DNA from: a virus
Length of the DNA: 64,000 nucleotides
Strand: one strand, 5' to 3'
IMG/VR virus record: IMGVR_UViG_3300026488_000010
Position numbers and translations under genes: made by a program. Shown piece after piece: positions 4,127 through 58,036 of the stretch (positions are counted from its first letter, which is position 1; the number at the start of each line of letters is the position of its first letter). The notes beneath the pieces are model-generated. The model was not told the origin of the DNA. It worked only from the letters and a program-made list of their open reading frames with translations, and ran no database searches.

Positions 4127-4276
4127 CTATCTTTAAAGATCGTTTCGAAGTTAGTATAGAAATTAATTTAATTTATTTCTATACTAACTAAAACGATCTT
4201 TAAAGATAGAAAAATATGCCAAGAAAACGATCTTTAAAGATAGAAATGTTTTTACCAAAACGATCTTTAAAGATAG
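4127..4276. repeat. Cluster of four C(G/T)ATCTTT-AAAGAT palindromes plus inverted AGTTAGTATAGAAAT/ATTTCTATACTAACT pair
   Basis: Copies at 4127-4145, 4190-4209, 4224-4243, 4257-4276, read directly. Confidence 0.9.
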
Positions 4277-46681: not shown

Positions 46682-46861
46682 TTTTCTATCTTAAAGGATA
46701 GAAAAAATAAGAATCAAGGAAAACGATCTTTAAAGATCGTTTTATAAATTGTCTATAAAAATGACTTTATAAAACGATCTTTAAAGATCGTTTTAGTTAG
46801 CATAGAAATTAATTTAATTTATTTCTATGCTAACTATTTTTCTATCTTAAAAGATCGTTTT
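46682..46861. repeat. Cluster of four palindrome-family copies plus inverted AGTTAGCATAGAAAT/ATTTCTATGCTAACT pair
   Basis: Copies at 46682, 46720, 46771, 46838; architecture mirrors 4127-4276. Confidence 0.9.
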
Positions 46862-47327: not shown

Positions 47328-47731
47328 ATTGTACCTCCTATTTTTATAAGGATTTGTTGGACACATTTCTATATTAACTTTAGAAACTCTAGAAACTTTA
47401 GAAACTCTGGGAAATACAAATACGTAGTATAGAAATCAATATAGTAATAAGAATATAATATAGGATTATATTCGCAATGAAACAAAGAAGAGAGTTATAG
47501 GAACTCCTAAAAACCTAAAAGTAAAAAACCGACGATGAATGGTATATAAAAAATCAATAGAGGTAAGCGAAAGCACTCAAAACATAAAACATAAAATGCA
47601 CAAAAAGTGTGGCAGTACAAAAGTACATAAGACCGGAAAATTGAACGAAGCAGTTAAGAGCTGCATATAAAAATTCCCAACTGGGGGAAATAAAATATAC
47701 CAGATTTTTAATTATTATAAAAGGATCAGAA

Positions 47732-48310
47732 ATGATGAAAGTAAAAGAAATAAGAGAATATTATAAACAATTTTTATTGCCTGTAGATAGTGATAGTGTT
47801 AGAAATTCACACGGTGTTGATCATTGTGATGATGTTTTTAATTTAATGATAAAATTGAATAAGAAGTTGGGTTATGGTTATAGTAATGAAATAATAGCAT
47901 TCGCTGCTTATATACATGATTTATATTCAGATAGTACCAATAGAACGATACATCATATATTAGCACATACATATGTATTGAATAGAGTAGATGATTTATT
48001 AAAAGAATTATCTGGACACGATTTATATCTAGTCGCAGATGCTGTATTAGAACATAGAGCATCATATACTGGTAAATTTAGTTCTAATCTAAGCGCATTA
48101 ATATCTGCGGCAGATAGAGGATTGCCTGATTATGATTTACATTACAACCGTTCATTGGTATACAATAATGGAGATCATGATGGAGTTATTGAGCATTTAA
48201 AAGATAAGTTTAGTAGAGGTGGTTACGCTACGAAGAAGTATCCTGATTTTTATATTGAGATGTTTAAAGAAGAGTTAGAAATATTTTGGAGTAGAATTGA
48301 TGCGGCATAG
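47732..48310 (+). CDS. HD-domain phosphohydrolase
   Basis: HGVDH, AAYIHDL, EHRAS, AADRG; AAGGA SD. Confidence 0.85.
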   Translation: MMKVKEIREYYKQFLLPVDSDSVRNSHGVDHCDDVFNLMIKLNKKLGYGYSNEIIAFAAYIHDLYSDSTNRTIHHILAHTYVLNRVDDLLKELSGHDLYLVADAVLEHRASYTGKFSSNLSALISAADRGLPDYDLHYNRSLVYNNGDHDGVIEHLKDKFSRGGYATKKYPDFYIEMFKEELEIFWSRIDAA

Positions 48311-48418
48311 ACGATGTATAATCTCTATGGATAAGTGCAGTTATTTCTATATTAACTTTGGGAAATCCCAGAACTTAATATAGAAATCAATATAGTAATA
48401 AAATAAAAGGAGACAGAA

Positions 48419-48541
48419 ATGTCAAAGAAAGAAATAGAATTAATAAAAAATTATAAAGGTCGTGTGACGGTATGTCCATCACATGAACCAATTAGAGAAA
48501 ATTTGGTGAAGAGATCACCAAAATTAACAAGATATAGTTAA
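48419..48541 (+). CDS. 40-aa small protein
   Basis: MSKKEIELIKNYKGRVTVCPSHE...; AAGGAG SD; conserved upstream motif at 48380-48400. Confidence 0.55.
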   Translation: MSKKEIELIKNYKGRVTVCPSHEPIRENLVKRSPKLTRYS

Positions 48542-48774
48542 ATAAGATAGGTTAAAATCCTATCTTTTATTGAAATAAAAGACAAGAAAAAAGCGATTAT
48601 ATAAACATTAATTTTAATGTTTATATAATCGCTAAATTTTTTATTCTTATGTTTTATGGATCTGCTATAAACCTTTTTAGATTTAATAGTCCTAGTTCCC
48701 AAATTAATTTCTTTGGTTGCTGTTAGATATATATTCATATCTCGAGTTTTTACAATTTTTTTAATCTTAGACAT
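48538..48774 (-). CDS. Small basic protein
   Basis: Start reassigned to 48774 (AGGA SD): MSKIKKIVK...ATKEINLGTRTIKSKKVYSRSIKHK. Confidence 0.45.
   Translation of the reverse strand: MSKIKKIVKTRDMNIYLTATKEINLGTRTIKSKKVYSRSIKHKNKKFSDYINIKINVYIIAFFLSFISIKDRILTYLI
48582..48633 (-). terminator. Long hairpin + TTCTTGT terminator-like element closing the tRNA operon
   Basis: Stem AGCGATTATATAAACATT/AATGTTTATATAATCGCT, then TTTTTCTTGTC. Confidence 0.7.
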
Positions 48775-48794
48775 AATGAATCCTGTTGTTTGTA

Positions 48795-48869
48795 TGGCGC
48801 TCCGTAGGAGAATTGAACTCCTGATACTACCGTGACAGGGTAGTGTACTAACCGCTATACTAACGGAGC
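48795..48869 (-). tRNA. tRNA-Asp(GUC)
   Basis: Cloverleaf, loop CT-GTC-AC, encoded CCA. Confidence 0.95.
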
Positions 48870-48870
48870 T

Positions 48871-48947
48871 TGGTCGTCCTTCGAAGACTTGAACTTCGGA
48901 CCTCACCCTTATCAGGGGCGCACTCTAACCAACTGAGCTAAAGGACG
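48871..48947 (-). tRNA. tRNA-Ile(GAU)
   Basis: Loop CT-GAT-AA, encoded CCA. Confidence 0.95.
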
Positions 48948-48963
48948 ATTAATGTTTTAATGG

Positions 48964-49039
48964 TGGCTCCGGAGGCAGAATTCGAATCTGCAATCTTCAA
49001 GTTAACAGCTTGCTACATCACCAGTTATGTTACTCCGGA
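48964..49039 (-). tRNA. tRNA-Asn(GUU)
   Basis: Loop CT-GTT-AA, encoded CCA. Confidence 0.95.
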
Positions 49040-49066
49040 ATATTTTTTGTAAGTATAAATACTTAG

Positions 49067-49139
49067 ATGAGGAAGAGGGTTTCGAACCCCCAACATTCGC
49101 CACCAAAAGGCGATGCTCTACCAGTTGAGCTATTCCTCA
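49067..49139 (-). tRNA. tRNA-Gln(UUG), CCA not encoded
   Basis: Loop TT-TTG-GT, U1-A72 pair, T-loop GGTTCGAAA. Confidence 0.9.
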
Positions 49140-49150
49140 TCTAAATATTC

Positions 49151-49296
49151 AATAAGAACACATATGACCGCGAATAAGCGTCTGAGGATTCGAACCTCAG
49201 TAACCTAAAGCATTCACTGCCTTTCGCTAATCACCTTTTCGGTTTGCAACCCGTATAGTGTGTCGGCCGACAATTCGCGGTCATATGTATTCTTAT
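49151..49296 (-). ncRNA. tRNA-like RNA enclosed in a 24-bp terminal stem
   Basis: Terminal inverted repeat 49152-49175/49273-49296 with one U-G wobble in minus sense; canonical T-arm TGAGG-TTCGAAT-CCTCA. Confidence 0.65.
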
Positions 49297-49492
49297 GTAT
49301 TCTTATTAAATTTAAACAATAGAACCTTTCATCCAAAACGGGCGAACACTTAGTTCATCATAAACTTTATCCAATTCTTTTTGAGTATTTGCTAAACTTG
49401 AAGCGACTATCAATTCTCTAAAAGACATGTTTTTTAATTCTTTTTCTTTTTTCAATTTCTTTTCTTTTCTTTTCTTTTCTTTTTTTAATTTA

Positions 49493-49567
49493 TGGTGACC
49501 CTGCAGAGATTTGAACTCTGGTGACAGGCATGAAAAGCCTGGATCCTAACCACTAGATGACAGGGTC
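49493..49567 (-). tRNA. tRNA-Glu(UUC)
   Basis: Loop TT-TTC-AT, encoded CCA. Confidence 0.95.
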
Positions 49568-49568
49568 G

Positions 49569-49660
49569 TGGAGGAGAATGAGAGATTCGAACTCTCGGAC
49601 GATCAGAAACCGTCAACAGATTTCAAGTCTGCCGCCATCGACCAACTCGGCCAATTCTCC
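49569..49660 (-). tRNA. tRNA-Ser(UGA)
   Basis: Loop CT-TGA-AA, long variable arm, CCA. Confidence 0.95.
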
Positions 49661-49683
49661 ATATTATTATAACTTCTTTGTTG

Positions 49684-49760
49684 TGGTCGCATATCGAAGA
49701 CTTGAACTTCGGACCTCACCCTTATGAGGGGCACGCTCTAACCAACTGAGCTAATATGCG
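49684..49760 (-). tRNA. tRNA-CAU (Ile2 or elongator Met)
   Basis: Loop CT-CAT-AA; body nearly identical to tRNA-Ile(GAU); C1-G72 so not initiator. Confidence 0.9.
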
Positions 49761-49781
49761 GTAATATGCGATGGTGCCTGA

Positions 49782-49870
49782 TGGTGGATAGTGAGAGATT
49801 TGAACTCTCGGTACTCGAAAGTACGCTTCCTTAGCAGGGAAGTACCATAAGCCAGCTCGGCCAACTATCC
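49782..49870 (-). tRNA. tRNA-Ser(GCU)
   Basis: Loop CT-GCT-AA, long variable arm, CCA. Confidence 0.95.
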
Positions 49871-49910
49871 TTAAATTTTGTAGTTAAATGCAACTTACGC
49901 AAATCTAAAG

Positions 49911-49956
49911 ACAAGAAATGAGTAGCTACTTCACCGTTAGGCTCAGTAGCTACTCA
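49911..49956 (-). terminator. Hairpin + TTCTTGT element upstream of the tRNA array
   Basis: Stem TGAGTAGCTACT/AGTAGCTACTCA, then TTTCTTGTCTTTAG. Confidence 0.65.
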
Positions 49957-49974
49957 AAAAAATAATTTAATTGT

Positions 49975-50118
49975 CTAAAGGGTTGGAGGCCATTCTTTCG
50001 CGACGTTATCATTATTTTCCCAAGAGCTACTGAACATACTATTTTGCACATTTTCATTAGTTGAGGCACTAATCTGCATATCATTAATCGATTCAATATT
50101 TAATGTACAATTTTTCAT
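49975..50118 (-). CDS. 47-aa small protein
   Basis: Hand-translated MKNCTLNIESINDMQISAST...EWPPTL*; AAGGAA SD; promoter motif at 50154-50165. Confidence 0.55.
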   Translation of the reverse strand: MKNCTLNIESINDMQISASTNENVQNSMFSSSWENNDNVAKEWPPTL

Positions 50119-50241
50119 AATATGTTCCTTATTTTTTATATTTATTTTTCTTATACTTATTTGTTACCAGTGTTATTTTTTTACTCAAAATAATGCTATA
50201 AACTACTTAGACACGTTCCACTATTGTTGTGTCAATAATTT

Positions 50242-50411
50242 AAAAAAGTTCAGACCAGCTGCCCTGCTACATCTAAGTATGTATTAGACGGTTGCTATAC
50301 TCCGCTGAGTCATCATAACGTTTTTATCACCTCGGTACTTTATTACTAGACGATGATACTTTATAACTGCTTTTAACAGTAACGCTTTTATGCTCTCGTA
50401 TGAACTTTTTT
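50242..50411 (-). ncRNA. About 170-nt structured RNA of unknown class
   Basis: Closed by 11-bp AAAAAAGTTCA/TGAACTTTTTT; internal stems TATCATC/GGTGATA, ACTG/CAGT, TCTAA/TTAGA; no ORF. Confidence 0.5.
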
Positions 50412-50439
50412 AAATTATTTTAAATTATTTTGGACTTTT

Positions 50440-51250
50440 TAGAAGCTTGAGAATACAGCTTCTAAACGTGAATCTTAAAGACCTTATTTTTTAGTCTCTT
50501 TTCCACTTACGCGAGTAAGTACTTCACACGGTTGCAATTTTTATAGATCATGCGATTGATCTCTAACTTATAACTACTCATATTTTATCAACTTGAGAAC
50601 CTTGCGAGCTCTAAAAGACTACGAATCTATCATGAGACTTAATATAAAAGGATATTTGCCTTGGGGGCATCACCTCTCCATATTCAATAAATTGTATGGA
50701 ATTAAACCGCTTTCGTTATAAATGAATCTGAACTTTCCATGTGCTTTCGCTTATTTAATTTTCAGTTTAAAATTTAATCTAATTTTTGTGTGATACCAAT
50801 GTGTCAGATTAAGTGTGTCGTAACCTTTTGAGTCACAATATACACCACATCAGTTGTTCAGTTTTTTACACTAAACAATCCGTTGGATTTGCTCCTTATG
50901 AGAACACTCCCAACTTCTTGAAATTCGCCCTTGCTTTTACACTTGAACCTAATTTCTACCTTTACTTGCTATTATTTATATCGTTGGATAATTGTTAAGT
51001 AGGTCCCCCTACAAATAATGCTACAGCCGTAAGCCCTCACATCCTAGGTCGTTATCCCAAACAATTCGATTTTCTTAATGTATCTCATATTTCAATAAGA
51101 TATTAACGCAACAAACGTTAATCAAGTTAGCTTGCATAAACAAACTAGATGCTAACATCTAGCGATGATTTATCAGATCACCTTTACACCACTTACATGA
51201 TGATATTCGGATTATACTCCGACATAACTTTGACTGCTATGATTTTTCGC
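50440..51250 (-). ncRNA. GOLLD-like large ornate RNA (about 800 nt; boundaries approximate)
   Basis: ORF-free, GC-enriched, next to the tRNA array; GNRA hairpins; motifs GGTGTAAAGG, GACCTAG, AGCAAGGGCGAAT, GGAGTGTTCTCATA, CTCAAAAGG and 3' TTCTCAAGC resemble GOLLD as I recall it; needs a covariance-model search. Confidence 0.65.
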
Positions 51251-51372
51251 TGTTTATATCTCTAATACATAATTAATTAGATACTGAGATATAAACAACT
51301 ATATAAATACTCATATGTTTGTTTTAGAGTACTCAAATAGTTGTTTACAATATACTATTTCTATAGTAACTA

Positions 51373-51396
51373 TTTTCTATCTTTAAAGATAGAAAA
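51373..51396. repeat. 24-bp palindrome TTTTCTATCTTTAAAGATAGAAAA preceded by ATTTCTATAGTAACT
   Basis: Read directly; same pairing at about 52271-52309 and 57774-57807. Confidence 0.9.
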
Positions 51397-51435
51397 TAAT
51401 ATATTCCATTTAAATATTGAGATAAGGTTTAAACC

Positions 51436-51732
51436 TTATGCTCCGATTTTTTTACCTGATTTTGAGAGTTCAAACGCAAGTTTAGTACGCGCAGGTTTAG
51501 CTGGAATATCATAGAATGTTCCGGGAACTAGTGCATTCTCAACATTAAGACGAGCAGCAGTTGCTCTAACATCTTTACGTTTAAAAGTACCATTTTTACC
51601 AAATGCTGCTTTGCCATTTTCCATAGCTTCTTTCACAATTGTATCAATTACGAATTCTACTTTTTCTCTACCAGCATCAGCTGTTTCACCAAATTTCTCA
51701 CTAAATTTTGCATATAATTCTTTTTCAGTCAT
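51436..51732 (-). CDS. HU/IHF-like DNA-binding protein
   Basis: Start at 51732; G..AFGKNGTFKRKDVRA...RN-like arm, IPAKPA..KLAFELSK. Confidence 0.85.
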   Translation of the reverse strand: MTEKELYAKFSEKFGETADAGREKVEFVIDTIVKEAMENGKAAFGKNGTFKRKDVRATAARLNVENALVPGTFYDIPAKPARTKLAFELSKSGKKIGA

Positions 51733-51950
51733 ATAATTCTCCGTTAAGTTTTTTTTGAGTTTCCTCATAAAAGATTTTATAAAATATAAAAGCTTTTATA
51801 AAGAAATCAGATCGAGGAGAGAAGTCTCGATCTAATTTAGGACGTTCTAATGAAAAACAAAATATCTAATCAAGGATATAGATATGAGTAATAGTGACAT
51901 ATAATAAGCATTAAAGCATTAAAGCATTAAAGCATTAAAGGAGTCAAATT

Positions 51951-52079
51951 ATGAAATACAAAGTTGAGATAAGGGGTAGACAAAAAATACGAAACGCACG
52001 AAACACACACAAAACACGTGTCTTGTCAGACGAAAAGGAGTTAATTTCTTTTGTTTTGGTTTACTCAGATTTTATATAA
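51951..52079 (+). CDS. Possible 42-aa small protein
   Basis: AAGGAG SD directly after an AAGCATTA x4 repeat; MKYKVEIRGRQKIRNARN... Confidence 0.35.
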   Translation: MKYKVEIRGRQKIRNARNTHKTRVLSDEKELISFVLVYSDFI

Positions 52080-52315
52080 GATTATACATCATTAAAGATT
52101 TATCGCGTGTTTTATCGAGTGTTCACTTAATAAGTACTTAATACCTTTAATAAATTAAATTTTATTTCTGATCACCTGGCTGTTAAATATCAGCGCTCTA
52201 AATATAACAAATTATACTTAAAGCGTTGTATTTGAGTTACTTTATCTGTTTGTCTGTATTACATTTAATAATTTCTATAGTAACTTTTTCTATCTTTTAA
52301 GATAGAAAAATATAG

Positions 52316-52738
52316 TTACCAGGCGTTGAATCCGCCTGATGTACTAGGTGCTGTTATAGTACCTGCAGTTTTTTGGGTAGATGCTACAGTATTTGTGGCA
52401 TGTGTTGTGCTCACTGTATCAGATACAGCGATATCAGTTAACTCTACTAAATCATCAGTACTTTGATTTAATGCTTTAAATTCTTGTTTAACCATAAATT
52501 CTTTATACATATTTGTCTTAGCGAATAATTTAATTCCTAAATTTACGATTGTTTCACCATGAATTGCACTTGCCTCTTGAATAATAGTCATTGCATCTTT
52601 ATCTAAAGCAACTGTTACTTTAGATAGTACTTCATCACCAGCAGTGCTATTCATCTGAGGTTCAGATGAATATGATGTTGCAGGTGCAGGCTGTTGATGT
52701 TGCGGCTGTTTCGGCATATTTGCTGGAACTTCTAACAT
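52316..52738 (-). CDS. Hypothetical protein (possible partition adaptor)
   Basis: Two genes downstream of the actin-like gene; central KVTVALDKDAMTII strand-helix segment with disordered flanks; role is inference. Confidence 0.6.
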   Translation of the reverse strand: MLEVPANMPKQPQHQQPAPATSYSSEPQMNSTAGDEVLSKVTVALDKDAMTIIQEASAIHGETIVNLGIKLFAKTNMYKEFMVKQEFKALNQSTDDLVELTDIAVSDTVSTTHATNTVASTQKTAGTITAPSTSGGFNAW

Positions 52739-53145
52739 TATAATGATCCTTTGTTTGTTGTTATATTACCATGTAAAGATTTATCAAACACATCAAGGAG
52801 TTCATCAATGTCAGTATCATTAAAGGTTGTACTTTCTTCGATACTTTTAAGTGACTCCTTTAATGCTAGTTGTAATGATTCATTAATACTTTTAAGATTG
52901 TTTATTTCAACATCTCTTGCAGCATCAGCTGATTCATTATCCATTACTGATTGTTTAATAATTTTTAATAGTTCATCATCAGATGATACAGTTGCCTTTA
53001 AATTTAAGAAAATTGCTTCAAAATCTTTTAAATCTTTTTTATTGGCTTTTGTTAGCCCGCCAATTCGAGCATTGAGTTCAGTCTCGATGTAATCTTTTAA
53101 GATTTCACCTTGACCTTCCATGATTCTTTTTATACCATGTTTCAT
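52738..53145 (-). CDS. Coiled-coil hypothetical protein
   Basis: 135-aa ORF with AAGGA SD. Confidence 0.7.
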   Translation of the reverse strand: MKHGIKRIMEGQGEILKDYIETELNARIGGLTKANKKDLKDFEAIFLNLKATVSSDDELLKIIKQSVMDNESADAARDVEINNLKSINESLQLALKESLKSIEESTTFNDTDIDELLDVFDKSLHGNITTNKGSL

Positions 53146-53291
53146 ATATTATCCTTTTTTAATATATCGAATATTTCTACATTTCCAAAACTTTTTTGGA
53201 AACTTTATCATCTGTTAAATATTGATTATATTGTCTTAAAATTTTTGTTCTTCGTAGGCATATTCACCTAAAATGTGATTAGTTTAAAAAC

Positions 53292-54203
53292 TTAATTTGA
53301 AACTAAGGAATATCCATATGCATTTGAGAACTCTTTGGGGTTCTTATTCCATACTACATTCTTCATACCAATAAACCCTTCTAGTAGATAAGAACCTCCA
53401 CCTGCAATTAGCACAGTGCTAGCAAATTGTAAAGTTTTCTTTTCAGATACTAAAACCGAATTGATAAGTTTTTGTACGAATTTGCCTTTAAGATCTTCAA
53501 TTTTTGCTGGGATTGCTTCTTGAATTTCTCCACCAAGAGTTAATTCACCGTCCATGAAGATCTTTAATGCTTCTTGTTCAGAAAAAGGCATACCATATGC
53601 ACTTTCTAAAAAGTTTGAAAATGTTTTCATTATACTTACAACACCATGACCAGGAAACCCTTTCATGCGGGTTTGCATTGCTTGGCCTCTTTCAAAATAT
53701 AAAAAGTTAATAGTTCTGTAACCAATATCAATTACACATGCATCTTTAGGATGTTCTCCAGGTGCATCATCTTTTTGAGTAATGTATGCATAATATGCAC
53801 CTGCACCTTGAGGAGCAACAACCTCACAAGCAGTTGCAATTGTTTCATCATTTACTTTAAGAAACTGCAATCGTTCTTGAAATTCTGCACGTTTAGACCA
53901 ATCAGTTAATGCTAATCCAGTTATTAACTTTACGTCACCAGCTATTCCCAATTTCTTTAAAATATGAAATACCATTAGTGGTCCAAATTTATCTAGGAAT
54001 TTATAATCAGTTGTTGTAAAAGCTTCATCAGTTGCTGCTTCACCTACATAATATTGCTCACCCTCAAAATCATAAACACTTGATTGGCCAAATTCAATAC
54101 CCGCATCGTTTGCGAATGATATAGCGGTTGGAACTTTATAAAATTCACCATTAAACATAATCTTCGCTGCTGAGTATCCTAAATCTATAATAATTTTATT
54201 CAT
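53292..54203 (-). CDS. parM: ParM/StbA-family actin-like ATPase
   Basis: IIIDLGYSAAK (phosphate 1), YYVGEAA, PQGAGA, VIDIGYRTIN (phosphate 2), LIAGGGS, NAYGY. Confidence 0.85.
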   Translation of the reverse strand: MNKIIIDLGYSAAKIMFNGEFYKVPTAISFANDAGIEFGQSSVYDFEGEQYYVGEAATDEAFTTTDYKFLDKFGPLMVFHILKKLGIAGDVKLITGLALTDWSKRAEFQERLQFLKVNDETIATACEVVAPQGAGAYYAYITQKDDAPGEHPKDACVIDIGYRTINFLYFERGQAMQTRMKGFPGHGVVSIMKTFSNFLESAYGMPFSEQEALKIFMDGELTLGGEIQEAIPAKIEDLKGKFVQKLINSVLVSEKKTLQFASTVLIAGGGSYLLEGFIGMKNVVWNKNPKEFSNAYGYSLVSN

Positions 54204-55084: not shown

Positions 55085-57748
55085 TTAACCAAAATCAAAC
55101 CCTTCGTAACTAAATTCACTTGGATATTGTGTCTTAATATTGTTGACAAGTATATGTAACATATCTGGGAAGAAATTCATAAACTGTTGTGTAAACATGA
55201 AGTGCGCTTGAATGTCTTGATTCTTAGATTTGTCAATTCTTGTAATTCGTCCAAGTGATTGAATTACGGGAACCTTCCCAACAATAAGAGAACCGAAGAT
55301 GATTGCAGATAAATCTGATTTATCAAAACCTGCAGATAATAATTTAAAATTTGATACTAATGTATCCTTCGCTTTCATTATCTCACGTTCAGTACGATTA
55401 TCAGCAATTGTCCAAGATGTTTTTAAATCCAGGGTTGGAATAGTTGCTTGAACCTTAGCGATATCTTTTAATATTGGTTTAGTCAAACTATATTTATCAT
55501 CCTCTCCTTTGAGCAATTTTAATGCGACACATTTCTTTCTTTTAGGAAATACTTCAAAATAATGATCATAGTATGATTGTACTTGTTCAGGCGTTAAATA
55601 TTCTTTTGATTCATCTAATTTCTTTTTAGTTTCACCAATTATGACACCAACGTCGATTCCTCGTCTTTCTAATACAGCAGCCATTCTACGAACCATTTTA
55701 TTAGTTGCAAATAATATTGCTGTTTTATGACCATCTTTTATTCTATATTCAACCCAGTTAGCAATCCATTCAAAATAAACTTCTTTAGTTTCTAATATCA
55801 TATTATATGTTGCCATGAAACGAACATAATCAGTTCTTGAAAAAACTAATCTTTGAATTTCTTTCTCTGTGAACTCGATTATCCCATTATGTAAATTAAT
55901 TTTGGGTACAAGATTTTGATGATCTGATTTATATAATATACCACCAGTGTTATTCATAAATAGGAATTCATTGATACCTACTCTATATGGTGTAGCAGTC
56001 ATTGATAATACATTATCTGTTGAAAACATACAAGCGGTTTTAGAATAACCATCTGATGCATTACCAACATGCGCTTCATCGTATATAACTAAGCCAAAAG
56101 CGGAATACAATTCTACTAATATATTAATATCAATATTTTTTAATTGTGCATATAATGATTGAATTTTGGCGACAACTATATCTTTTTCAAATACACATTT
56201 TTTAATTAATGCATTTATATCTGAACCTTGAGCAATACCTATATCATCCTTCTCAAGATTTGTAAATTCAATAATTGATTCTACAAATTGTCCTTCTAAT
56301 ATATCATTAGGTACAATAATTAAAGATTTTGTTCCTACTAATTCAACAGTCTTTATAGCTACTATCGAATTATGAGTCACTGTAAAATCTCGAGTAATAT
56401 ATAAGTGATCTTTCGCGTCTATTGTAATACATCTAGAATTTTCTTGATAATCTAATTTTTCAATATTAACTATTGTTTTTGTATTTTTTTTAGGGTTGAT
56501 ATTAATCATAAATTCATATGCTTCATGACCTATACATATCTCACCTTTATGTTTAAACTTTGGTTCAGGTTTTATACGAATCTCATTCGCATAAATACCT
56601 AACGATCTGACAATATGTTGTAATTGATTAATTAATTTTTTTGATGAGCTATATAAAATCTTTGAATTTTTAGATTGATGATATGAATCAGTTAATAAAT
56701 ATGCTCTTAAAAATTCTTTACGTTCGTCTACTGATGCGAAAATATAATCATCAGGTATGGATTTATCGATTGATAATTTATCCATTAATTTGTACGATTT
56801 TAATAACTGTTTTAATTTTAAACTCGTTATTCTATATGAGTATTTATTAATTATAGAATATGTTGCATCAGAATCAAATTCTAAAATTTGTGAAAAAACC
56901 TCTTTAAACACATCACCTCTTAAATCTGCAAATGTTATTGCATCTCCTCTAAAACTACCATCTGCAATAAGTGCGCCCATTGCAAAAGATTTTAGTTTTA
57001 AATTTCTTTTTGTGTATTGAACTTCGTCGCATAAATTAATTTTATATTTATATTCTTGTTGGTAAGTTCCATATTTTGTTTTATATCGACCACTTTTATA
57101 ATTTTTTAAAATTTTAGATGTATCTATAGTTTCCCAACCTTTATTTTTATTGGTAATTTTATGTCTATTTTTAACGGTCCATAAGTGATCAATACCACAT
57201 TTTGTATATGTTCCATCTTGGAACGTTATTTTATAAACATCGCTTATTCCATGTTCATGAATATGTGTGACTTTTGTTGGTGTTCCATTTTTTCCAACAA
57301 TAAATGAACCTATTTTGAGTTCTCCCATTGTGACCCAACCATTAGGTGTAAGGATCGGTTCGCTGTATGGTTGTTGCTTACCGAAACCAGGTTGAGCAAC
57401 TATAAGACCATTTATAGAACCTTTTAACATAGCATCTTTAATCGCTTTAAACACTGGTATTTGCTCTTTTCTCGCTTCGATTGATGTTACCATCTTCTTT
57501 AACTTTACTGGAGCAATTTGCGCATCTTCTTTAGCTAAGTTATGTCGGCGTAAGATTTCAGCACCAACTTTATCAATCGCTAACTCACTATGATTATATT
57601 GCACAAAGAATTTTGGCAATACTACACCATAACCAACATCGAATACACCTAAGTCGCGGTCATCATATGGTATTGGTTTTTCATATTTATTCCATATACT
57701 GGACTGGGATTTTAAATATTCCCATTCAGTTTTGTAAATTATATCCAC
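55085..57748 (-). CDS. SF2 helicase (UvsW-like) containing an intein
   Basis: Walker A QPGFGK|S, DEAH, MTAT, SAGFD, QSLGRITR. Confidence 0.9.
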   Translation of the reverse strand: MDIIYKTEWEYLKSQSSIWNKYEKPIPYDDRDLGVFDVGYGVVLPKFFVQYNHSELAIDKVGAEILRRHNLAKEDAQIAPVKLKKMVTSIEARKEQIPVFKAIKDAMLKGSINGLIVAQPGFGKQQPYSEPILTPNGWVTMGELKIGSFIVGKNGTPTKVTHIHEHGISDVYKITFQDGTYTKCGIDHLWTVKNRHKITNKNKGWETIDTSKILKNYKSGRYKTKYGTYQQEYKYKINLCDEVQYTKRNLKLKSFAMGALIADGSFRGDAITFADLRGDVFKEVFSQILEFDSDATYSIINKYSYRITSLKLKQLLKSYKLMDKLSIDKSIPDDYIFASVDERKEFLRAYLLTDSYHQSKNSKILYSSSKKLINQLQHIVRSLGIYANEIRIKPEPKFKHKGEICIGHEAYEFMININPKKNTKTIVNIEKLDYQENSRCITIDAKDHLYITRDFTVTHNSIVAIKTVELVGTKSLIIVPNDILEGQFVESIIEFTNLEKDDIGIAQGSDINALIKKCVFEKDIVVAKIQSLYAQLKNIDINILVELYSAFGLVIYDEAHVGNASDGYSKTACMFSTDNVLSMTATPYRVGINEFLFMNNTGGILYKSDHQNLVPKINLHNGIIEFTEKEIQRLVFSRTDYVRFMATYNMILETKEVYFEWIANWVEYRIKDGHKTAILFATNKMVRRMAAVLERRGIDVGVIIGETKKKLDESKEYLTPEQVQSYYDHYFEVFPKRKKCVALKLLKGEDDKYSLTKPILKDIAKVQATIPTLDLKTSWTIADNRTEREIMKAKDTLVSNFKLLSAGFDKSDLSAIIFGSLIVGKVPVIQSLGRITRIDKSKNQDIQAHFMFTQQFMNFFPDMLHILVNNIKTQYPSEFSYEGFDFG
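56369..57376 (-). mobile_element. 336-aa intein with LAGLIDADG domain; class 3 signature, Gln1
   Basis: QQPYSEPILTPNGW...DHLW...GALIADG...RCITID...VTHN|S, inserted in Walker A. Confidence 0.9.
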
Positions 57749-57872
57749 GCGACTCCTTTTGTTTTATATATTATTTCTATAGTAACTTTTTCTATCTTTA
57801 AAGATAGTTTGGGTTTTATAAATATTTACCATAGAAATTAATATAGTAATATAAAAAGATAAAGGAAAAAGA

Positions 57873-57991: not shown

Positions 57992-58036
57992 AAAACGATC
58001 TTTATCGATAAAGATCGAAAAAGTTACCATAGAAAT
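57992..58036. repeat. Palindrome-family copy plus AGTTACCATAGAAAT
   Basis: AAAACGATCTTTATCGATAAAGATCG followed by the second motif. Confidence 0.85.

Follow-up and report, generated by a model that had tools for sequence, protein, structure and literature searches.

What is the long non-coding interval that heads a tRNA island in an uncultured hydrothermal-vent jumbo phage, and do its neighbours tell us what it does? The window that we analysed, a 64,000-nt stretch of the phage's DNA (IMG/VR record IMGVR_UViG_3300026488_000010), encodes a multisubunit RNA polymerase beta subunit, a terminase, virion proteins and an actin-like protein, and the terminase is less than 27% identical to that of any cultured phage. 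A preliminary description, made from the letters of the sequence, had rightly taken this for a phage with an RNA polymerase of its own, here a multisubunit one, and had proposed that the interval encodes a GOLLD-like giant RNA. GOLLD RNAs are among the largest non-coding RNAs of bacteria and phages, and they have been known since 2024 to form cages that consist of RNA only and are larger than the ribosome. We conclude that window positions 51299-50441 (coordinates in descending order run along the minus strand) very probably constitute a divergent but complete two-domain GOLLD gene of this phage, standing at the head of the tRNA island.

The identification starts from a covariance-model search (cmsearch, Rfam release 15), in which the GOLLD family (RF02032) matched the minus strand at 50855-50444 with 158.4 bits and an E-value of 1.7e-42, covering model positions 1-416 of 416 without truncation. 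The curated gathering cut-off of the family is 150 bits, and since the score exceeds it by just 8 bits we regard the window GOLLD as a divergent member. What had been proposed is in this way borne out by a full-length match above the cut-off, and the ROOL family gave no match at E<=1 in 47500-53500 and none at gathering score over the whole window. The only other Rfam matches with E<=1 in 47500-53500 were eight tRNAs and three below-cut-off matches, all lying on tRNA genes. The absence of a credible reading frame also held up: the only ORFs of at least 40 aa in 50440-51300 are two on the plus strand, of 42 and 61 aa, and gene calling likewise left the homologous stretch of the relative L116 empty.

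Relatives were reached through the HU-like protein encoded upstream, which has 12 homologs in vent-type metagenomes. The most informative is L116, whose HU-like protein is 71% identical and whose gene order (helicase, actin-like, HU-like) is that of the window; directly after its HU-like gene, in the syntenic place, lies a GOLLD match of 186.1 bits, and L117 is identical to L116 over the GOLLD RNA. Alignment of the window with L116 extends over the full RNA, about 859 nt (33% G+C) in the window and 850 nt in L116 (L116:6306-7155). The similarity begins at the first hairpin, ends shortly behind the last one and extends no further, which fixes the complete RNA at 51299-50441, almost exactly the ends (50440 and 51300) that had been proposed for it. 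The 5' half of the RNA is 69% and the 3' half 75% identical to L116, comparable with the 73% of the neighbouring HU-like gene. A third relative, L113, has an HU-like protein 89% identical to that of the window and covers the first 215 nt of the GOLLD only. Further afield, a GOLLD sequence-pattern scan of IMG/VR gave 104 loci, of which the best has 67% identity in the 3' half; BLAST against these loci returned just short motif matches. Two lineage-specific pattern scans of IMG/VR gave chance matches only, and a metagenome scan gave six loci and no GOLLD, the L265 locus ending before the downstream part.

Of the 5' part, the Rfam model takes in no more than the last hairpin, its remainder being the linker and the 3' domain; the 5' 440 nt are left uncovered and therefore need separate evidence. 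The region as a whole (51300-50856) folds better than its shuffles (z = -6.2). It opens with a long P1-like hairpin at 51299-51249 (-20.1 kcal/mol, z -7.2), so that the long hairpin described earlier at 51251-51297 is real; hairpins of different sequence stand in the same place in L113 (-19.2 kcal/mol) and L116 (-17.2 kcal/mol), and the feature is kept in three phages. The 5'-domain core follows at 51229-51078 and reads, in order, hairpin 1, AUA, hairpin 2 with a GUAA loop, GUAAAGG, hairpin 3, CGCUA and two further hairpins. The rest of the 5' domain (51077-50856, examined in an alignment of the window with L116 here called A2) contains the conserved block AGGAUGUGAGGG..UACG.CUGUAGCAU at 51045-51018. 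The four ordered motifs that had been noticed at about 51181, 51043, 50923 and 50891 all fall on blocks conserved between the window and L116.

Compensatory changes occur among the homologs in both halves of the RNA. RNAalifold applied to A2 predicted 74 pairs, of which 30 are changed on both sides, whereas slid controls, in which the partners were shifted by 1-3 columns, gave 0-4 double changes; 100% of cells are paired and no helix is broken. Both the structure and its test come from these two sequences, so that the covariation is supportive and not independent. We accordingly built a covariance model (R1) solely from window 51229-51078 together with L116 and L113, and searched it against 100 sources (about 1 Mb) and, in a second search, against 21 sources. 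In more than 40 IMG/VR GOLLD loci R1 matches the 5' region; every such match is on the strand of the GOLLD and precedes the ACGAAAG junction by 520-590 nt, compared with 513 nt in the window. The E-values range from 1e-5 to 5e-4 in the 100-source search, and the best match, L111, reached 49 bits and E 1e-8 in the 21-source search. In the alignment made from these matches (A5), 91.5% of cells are paired versus 34-50% in slid controls, and 92 cells carry double changes versus 14-28. The GOLLDs found by R1 share a core of a hairpin, AUA, a hairpin with a GNRA-like loop, GUAAAGG, a hairpin and CGCUA, and no primary-sequence motif in the 5' half is common to the window and other GOLLDs, the homology being visible to the covariance model only. 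Because the R1 matches fit in both position and strand, the 5' half is, on this comparative evidence, the canonical GOLLD 5' domain, diverged too far for BLAST or motif searches to find it.

The remainder of the RNA can be read along the Rfam alignment; we inferred the correspondence of published helix names to Rfam positions from the text of the papers, not from their figures. Model positions 1-59 correspond to the P13/P14 hairpin at 50855-50797, whose loop UCAAAAG (the L14 A-patch) is identical to the Rfam consensus and is also present in L116. The variable A/U-rich linker (J13/15) occupies 50796-50725, a low-confidence unpaired part of the alignment in which no tRNA was found. It contains the motif UGGAAAG (50739-50733) and a 13-nt insertion missing in L116. 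The hairpin described earlier at 50743-50750 survives only as an extra mini-hairpin of this linker (GCGAAAGC, 50750-50743), two base pairs of the form GC-GAAA-GC that L116 does not have. The conserved 3' core (50724-50444, model positions 137-416) comprises the long-range helix P17 together with P18, P19/20, P21 (P21a and P21b), P22, P23-P26 and P27, with the junction ACGAAAG..UAAU and a P19/20 loop CCCAA at 50665-50661. Two other hairpins that had been described as GNRA-capped lie within this core: that at 50596-50611 stands as a hairpin, P21b, its loop being CGCAA, and that at 50707-50717 is in the Rfam alignment the conserved single-stranded junction ACGAAAG instead. The 3' hairpin reported near 50440-50464 is the last hairpin, P27, at 50463-50441, whose loop GUAUUCUCA differs from the consensus by one letter. 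The signature of the 3' domain is complete and has high posterior probability: the helix enclosing P18-P21, ACGAAAG..UAAU, the GAGUAGU strand and a terminal loop of the GUAaUCUCA type.

Cryo-electron microscopy has shown that GOLLD self-assembles protein-free, into a 14-mer (env-38) or a 12-mer (Streptococcus agalactiae), with the 5' domains as caps, the 3' domains as rings and named bridges that join the subunits; the L14 A-patch makes an inter-subunit A-minor contact in the solved cages (bioRxiv 10.1101/2024.12.08.627333; PMC12990946). Beyond the A-patch, the P21a loop of the window has a central CG, one of the two reported self-complementary dinucleotides. A further bridge, B7, is the kissing contact between L20 and the linker. 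Among 36 distinct GOLLDs, the linker/L20 triplets are GCG/CGC in 16, GCA/CGC in 11, and GUG/CGC and GCA/UGC in one each, and UGG/CCC occurs in the window and L116 only, so that in these two the central kissing pair has been swapped from C-G to G-C. In the register that we inferred, 20 of the 36 sequences can pair at this bridge, against a shuffle mean of 15.1, and none of 1,000 shuffles reached 20. The compensated swap is consistent with selection on the inter-subunit contact. The hairpin mapped to P24 has the loop UCGC (AUGU in L116), which is not GNRA, so that the tetraloop-receptor contact made by L24 in the S. agalactiae cage may be lacking here. By analogy with the solved structures, protein-free self-assembly into a cage of 12 to 14 subunits is the mechanism that we consider most likely, and on balance probable. 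The 5' part of the transcript would fold as the cap domain and the 3' part as the ring domain, with a floppy linker between them, and 12 to 14 copies would assemble without protein into a hollow cage. The contacts that would hold it are all kept here: the A-patch of L14, the kissing of L20 with the linker, and the self-kissing loops L21a and L21b.

How firmly, then, can the region be called a GOLLD, and one that still works? The reading in which it belongs to a new large-RNA class, or is a piece of coding or spacer sequence, A/T-rich and matching the model by chance, draws on a G+C content of about 31-33% for the stretch, on the 22-bit composition bias term in the match and on the distance to known sequences (blastn of 50300-51450 against 50,697 cultured-phage records gave no match, and the nearest IMG/VR GOLLD is 67% identical in its 3' half). 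We hold it to be extremely improbable given an E-value of 1.7e-42 over the full model, a 186-bit match in the independent relative L116, the lack of any conserved ORF, and a model of the 5' half alone whose matches to other GOLLDs have the expected spacing and strand; within the reach of sequence analysis, the Rfam, L116 and R1 matches refute it. A second reading accepts the family and supposes that the window holds a decaying, non-functional remnant that no longer assembles or acts and is leaving the lineage. The score barely over the cut-off, the variable presence among relatives, the L24 loop that is not GNRA and the 13-nt linker insertion would all fit such decay, but both halves have been kept over about 25-30% divergence with many compensatory changes and complete pairing in A2, the partners of the kissing loop have changed together and the invariant loops are intact. 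The RNA is moreover as conserved as the adjoining protein gene, and words of the stretch are present in RNA libraries, all of which leaves the remnant very unlikely and an intact GOLLD the reading that we retain.

We were also interested in whether the protein gene upstream takes part in the mechanism. The product of this gene (51732-51436, minus strand; P0001, 98 aa) had been called HU, and Pfam alone supports that name poorly (PF00216, E 0.17, below the cut-off). A profile of its family matches solved HU proteins in the PDB at E 0.005, three of its homologs carry a precomputed PF00216 match, and an AF2 model (pLDDT 83) has HU, IHF or ASFV pA104R as all of its top 20 Foldseek hits (E 3e-5, TM about 0.65); the neighbour is thus HU-like by its predicted fold. 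An alternative to unaided assembly, which bears on mechanism and leaves the identity untouched, is that GOLLD is a processed 3' extension of the HU-like mRNA and that the HU-like protein binds or chaperones the cage as a ribonucleoprotein. Bacterial HU binds structured RNAs, which favours such a complex, and GOLLD follows the HU-like gene on the same strand not only in the window but also in L116/L117 and, for its 5' part, in L113. In L116 only about 10 nt lie between the HU-like stop codon and the first GOLLD hairpin, with no terminator- or promoter-like element there. The window, by contrast, has a terminator-like palindrome between the two genes, and the solved GOLLD cages assemble without protein. 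Relatives point the same way: in L001 the HU-like gene is kept and is followed by two protein genes, in L118 by an unstructured GOLLD-free spacer (z -0.3 vs shuffles) and in L114 by a tRNA. An HMM of the HU subfamily found no member near any of the 104 IMG/VR GOLLD-pattern loci, within the sequence available around each. Since other relatives keep the HU-like gene without GOLLD, the link between the two looks positional, and we think it unlikely that the HU-like protein is part of the assembly. The suggestion that the neighbourhood offers context for function is correspondingly weaker than had been implied, the adjacency of HU-like gene and GOLLD holding in part of this lineage and at 0 of 104 other loci.

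Protein-free assembly remains the mechanism that we prefer, and the HU-like gene is better seen as marking the edge of a variable tRNA/ncRNA island of which GOLLD is an accessory part. The close relatives L001 and L118 have no GOLLD after the HU-like gene, which makes it accessory in the lineage; for L001/G001 (IMGVR_UViG_3300024260_000002) none was found in 181 kb of a genome only about 65% complete. L001, L114 and L118 share the order helicase, actin-like, HU-like, and what comes after the HU-like gene varies. The island downstream of that gene is a gene-turnover hot spot, occupied by GOLLD, tRNA, protein genes or plain spacer. On the other side of the HU-like gene, the window has about 500 nt (51770-52270) with no ORF of at least 60 aa and with several hairpins, the ends of which are about 79% conserved in L113; in L001 the HU-like gene is likewise preceded by non-coding DNA rich in hairpins, about 330 nt long. 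The helicase gene of the window (55085-57748) contains an inserted LAGLIDADG domain by Pfam, probably an intein; the L001 helicase is without the inserted part, and the tblastx alignment skips from 57545 to 56368.

In the window the minus-strand order is HU-like gene, palindrome with 15-mer, leader hairpin, GOLLD, a stem-enclosed element, a 47-aa ORF and tRNAs. The tRNA-island setting that had been described is confirmed by eight tRNA genes (Ser, Met, Ser, Glu, Gln, Asn, Ile and Asp; ARAGORN and Rfam) at 49870-48795, on the same strand and 570-1650 nt downstream of GOLLD. Directly downstream of GOLLD, at 50419-50234, about 148 nt are flanked by the arms of an A/U-rich inverted repeat of 19 bp; this element folds modestly better than shuffles (z -2.9), has no Rfam match and has no counterpart in L116 or the loci of other relatives compared. 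The tRNA array is split by a stem-locked tRNA-like RNA at 49296-49151, in which a stem of about 22-24 bp closes off a perfect T-arm (GAGGUUCGAAUCCUC) and three hairpins, one containing GCA, one capped by GUGAA and one palindromic; the surrounding region folds with z -5.2. The tRNA-like RNA is not called by ARAGORN or Rfam and has no counterpart in the relatives' loci compared. Smaller features lie between these elements: a late-promoter-like word, AACAAATAAGTA, at 50165-50154 precedes the 47-aa ORF (50118-49975), which has a good ribosome-binding site; a 12-bp hairpin at 49956-49919 follows that ORF just before the first tRNA; and a purine-only run of (AAAAG)-like repeats occupies the minus strand at 49440-49492, between tRNA-Glu and the tRNA-like RNA.

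The boundary between the HU-like gene and GOLLD is drawn by a cassette on the minus strand (51398-51357), in which a terminator-like perfect palindrome (51398-51371) abuts the 15-mer AGTTACTATAGAAAT (51371-51357). The general form of the cassette, an A/T-rich perfect palindrome (TTTTCTATCTTTAAAGATAGAAAA or AAAACGATCTTTAAAGATCGTTTT) next to the 15-mer AGTTANNATAGAAAT, recurs about 10 times in the window. The palindrome has three copies there (46682-46705, 51371-51398 and 52285-52310) versus none expected, and about 11 in the relative G001. The 15-mer, with about 10 copies that are mostly intergenic, is found at 51357-51371, 52271-52285, 57773-57787, 47365-47379, 48343-48357, 4149-4189, 46795-46835 and 58022-58036; two copies lie just upstream of gene starts, and two sites hold two copies face to face. 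The cassette is present in L113 and not in L116. It is probably a terminator plus a promoter or operator; alternatively, it may be a protein-binding (partition) site.

These arrangements suggest two modes of expression. The cassette just downstream of the HU-like gene would probably drive transcription of the window GOLLD, and the L116 GOLLD, which starts about 10 nt past the HU-like stop codon, would probably be co-transcribed with that gene. At the other end of the RNA, the last GOLLD hairpin of L116 is followed by a U-run, UUAUUUUUU (L116:7126-7165), and could double as an intrinsic terminator; that of the window is followed by an A-run, AAAAAG (50441-50468), which suggests read-through into the downstream RNAs. 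In two vent metatranscriptome runs from a different study, 71% of the stretch's sampled words were present, RNA libraries being able to carry DNA as well, and the whole stretch is present in one vent metagenome run, which is probably its source.

The neighbourhood is rich in translation-related parts (tRNAs, the tRNA mimic and a putative ArfA-like gene), and with low confidence we put forward that GOLLD belongs to a phage translation-support module made of the tRNAs and the putative ArfA-like gene. Late in infection it might enclose or protect cargo of tRNA size or cargo associated with ribosomes. A more specific version of this idea seems to us a long shot. In it GOLLD would be the first gene of a single RNA operon of about 2.8 kb, which would run from the cassette at 51398-51357 to a terminator at 48633-48592 and take in, after GOLLD, a stem-enclosed 170-nt RNA, the eight tRNAs with the mimic among them and the putative ArfA-like gene; the cage would be built beside the tRNA-shaped RNAs that it holds, and the HU-like protein would serve as a dedicated cofactor. 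As the phage is uncultured, the copy alone does not make the function testable. What the locus does offer is a complete and highly diverged GOLLD from a setting new to the family, a jumbo phage of hydrothermal vents that encodes RNA polymerases of its own. It also supplies a naturally occurring compensatory swap in a kissing loop between subunits, which speaks for selection on the cage contact, and a small group of relatives, useful for comparative work, that do or do not carry GOLLD at this locus.

The closest likeness among known systems is to the marine env-38 GOLLD, an RNA of 833 nt whose 14-mer cage has been solved (PDB 9MEE; Kretsch et al., bioRxiv 10.1101/2024.12.08.627333). Both are RNAs of about 0.85 kb built from two domains that a floppy, A-rich linker joins, and both match the family model at full length; both have the L14 A-patch, the ACGAAAG junction, P21a and P21b, the last loop GUAUUCUCA and, through R1, the 5' core; and both are phage-borne and lie beside tRNAs. 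The window RNA differs in being very divergent, in its L20 CCCAA and linker UGGAAAG in place of CGCAA and GCGAAAG (a compensated difference), and in its phage, an uncultured jumbo phage from a vent that encodes an RNA polymerase of its own. The S. agalactiae GOLLD is shorter (700 nt) and forms a 12-mer, its 3' domain alone a 10-mer (PDB 9L0R and 9LMF; PMC12990946). It belongs to the same family and uses the same 3'-domain contacts (L14 minor-groove, L20 kissing and L21 self-kissing), but is without P21b, which the window has, and several 5' helices, and its cage uses an L24 GNRA tetraloop where the window has UCGC.

The GOLLD of the Lactobacillus brevis ATCC 367 prophage (Weinberg et al. 2009) accumulates in lytic growth according to a later account (PMC7567579), which, citing Harris and Breaker 2018, gives this as the sole GOLLD studied in vivo and as dispensable for phage production. 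Like the window GOLLD it is phage-encoded and adjacent to tRNAs, whereas its carrier is a temperate prophage of a Gram-positive host and that of the window a large uncultured phage, for which the only sign of expression is the presence of the stretch in metatranscriptome assemblies. ROOL, which gave no match at E<=1, is unrelated in sequence and fold but analogous in function: it too is a large RNA found in phages and with tRNAs, and it assembles into a hollow homo-oligomer, in its case an octameric or hexameric cage.
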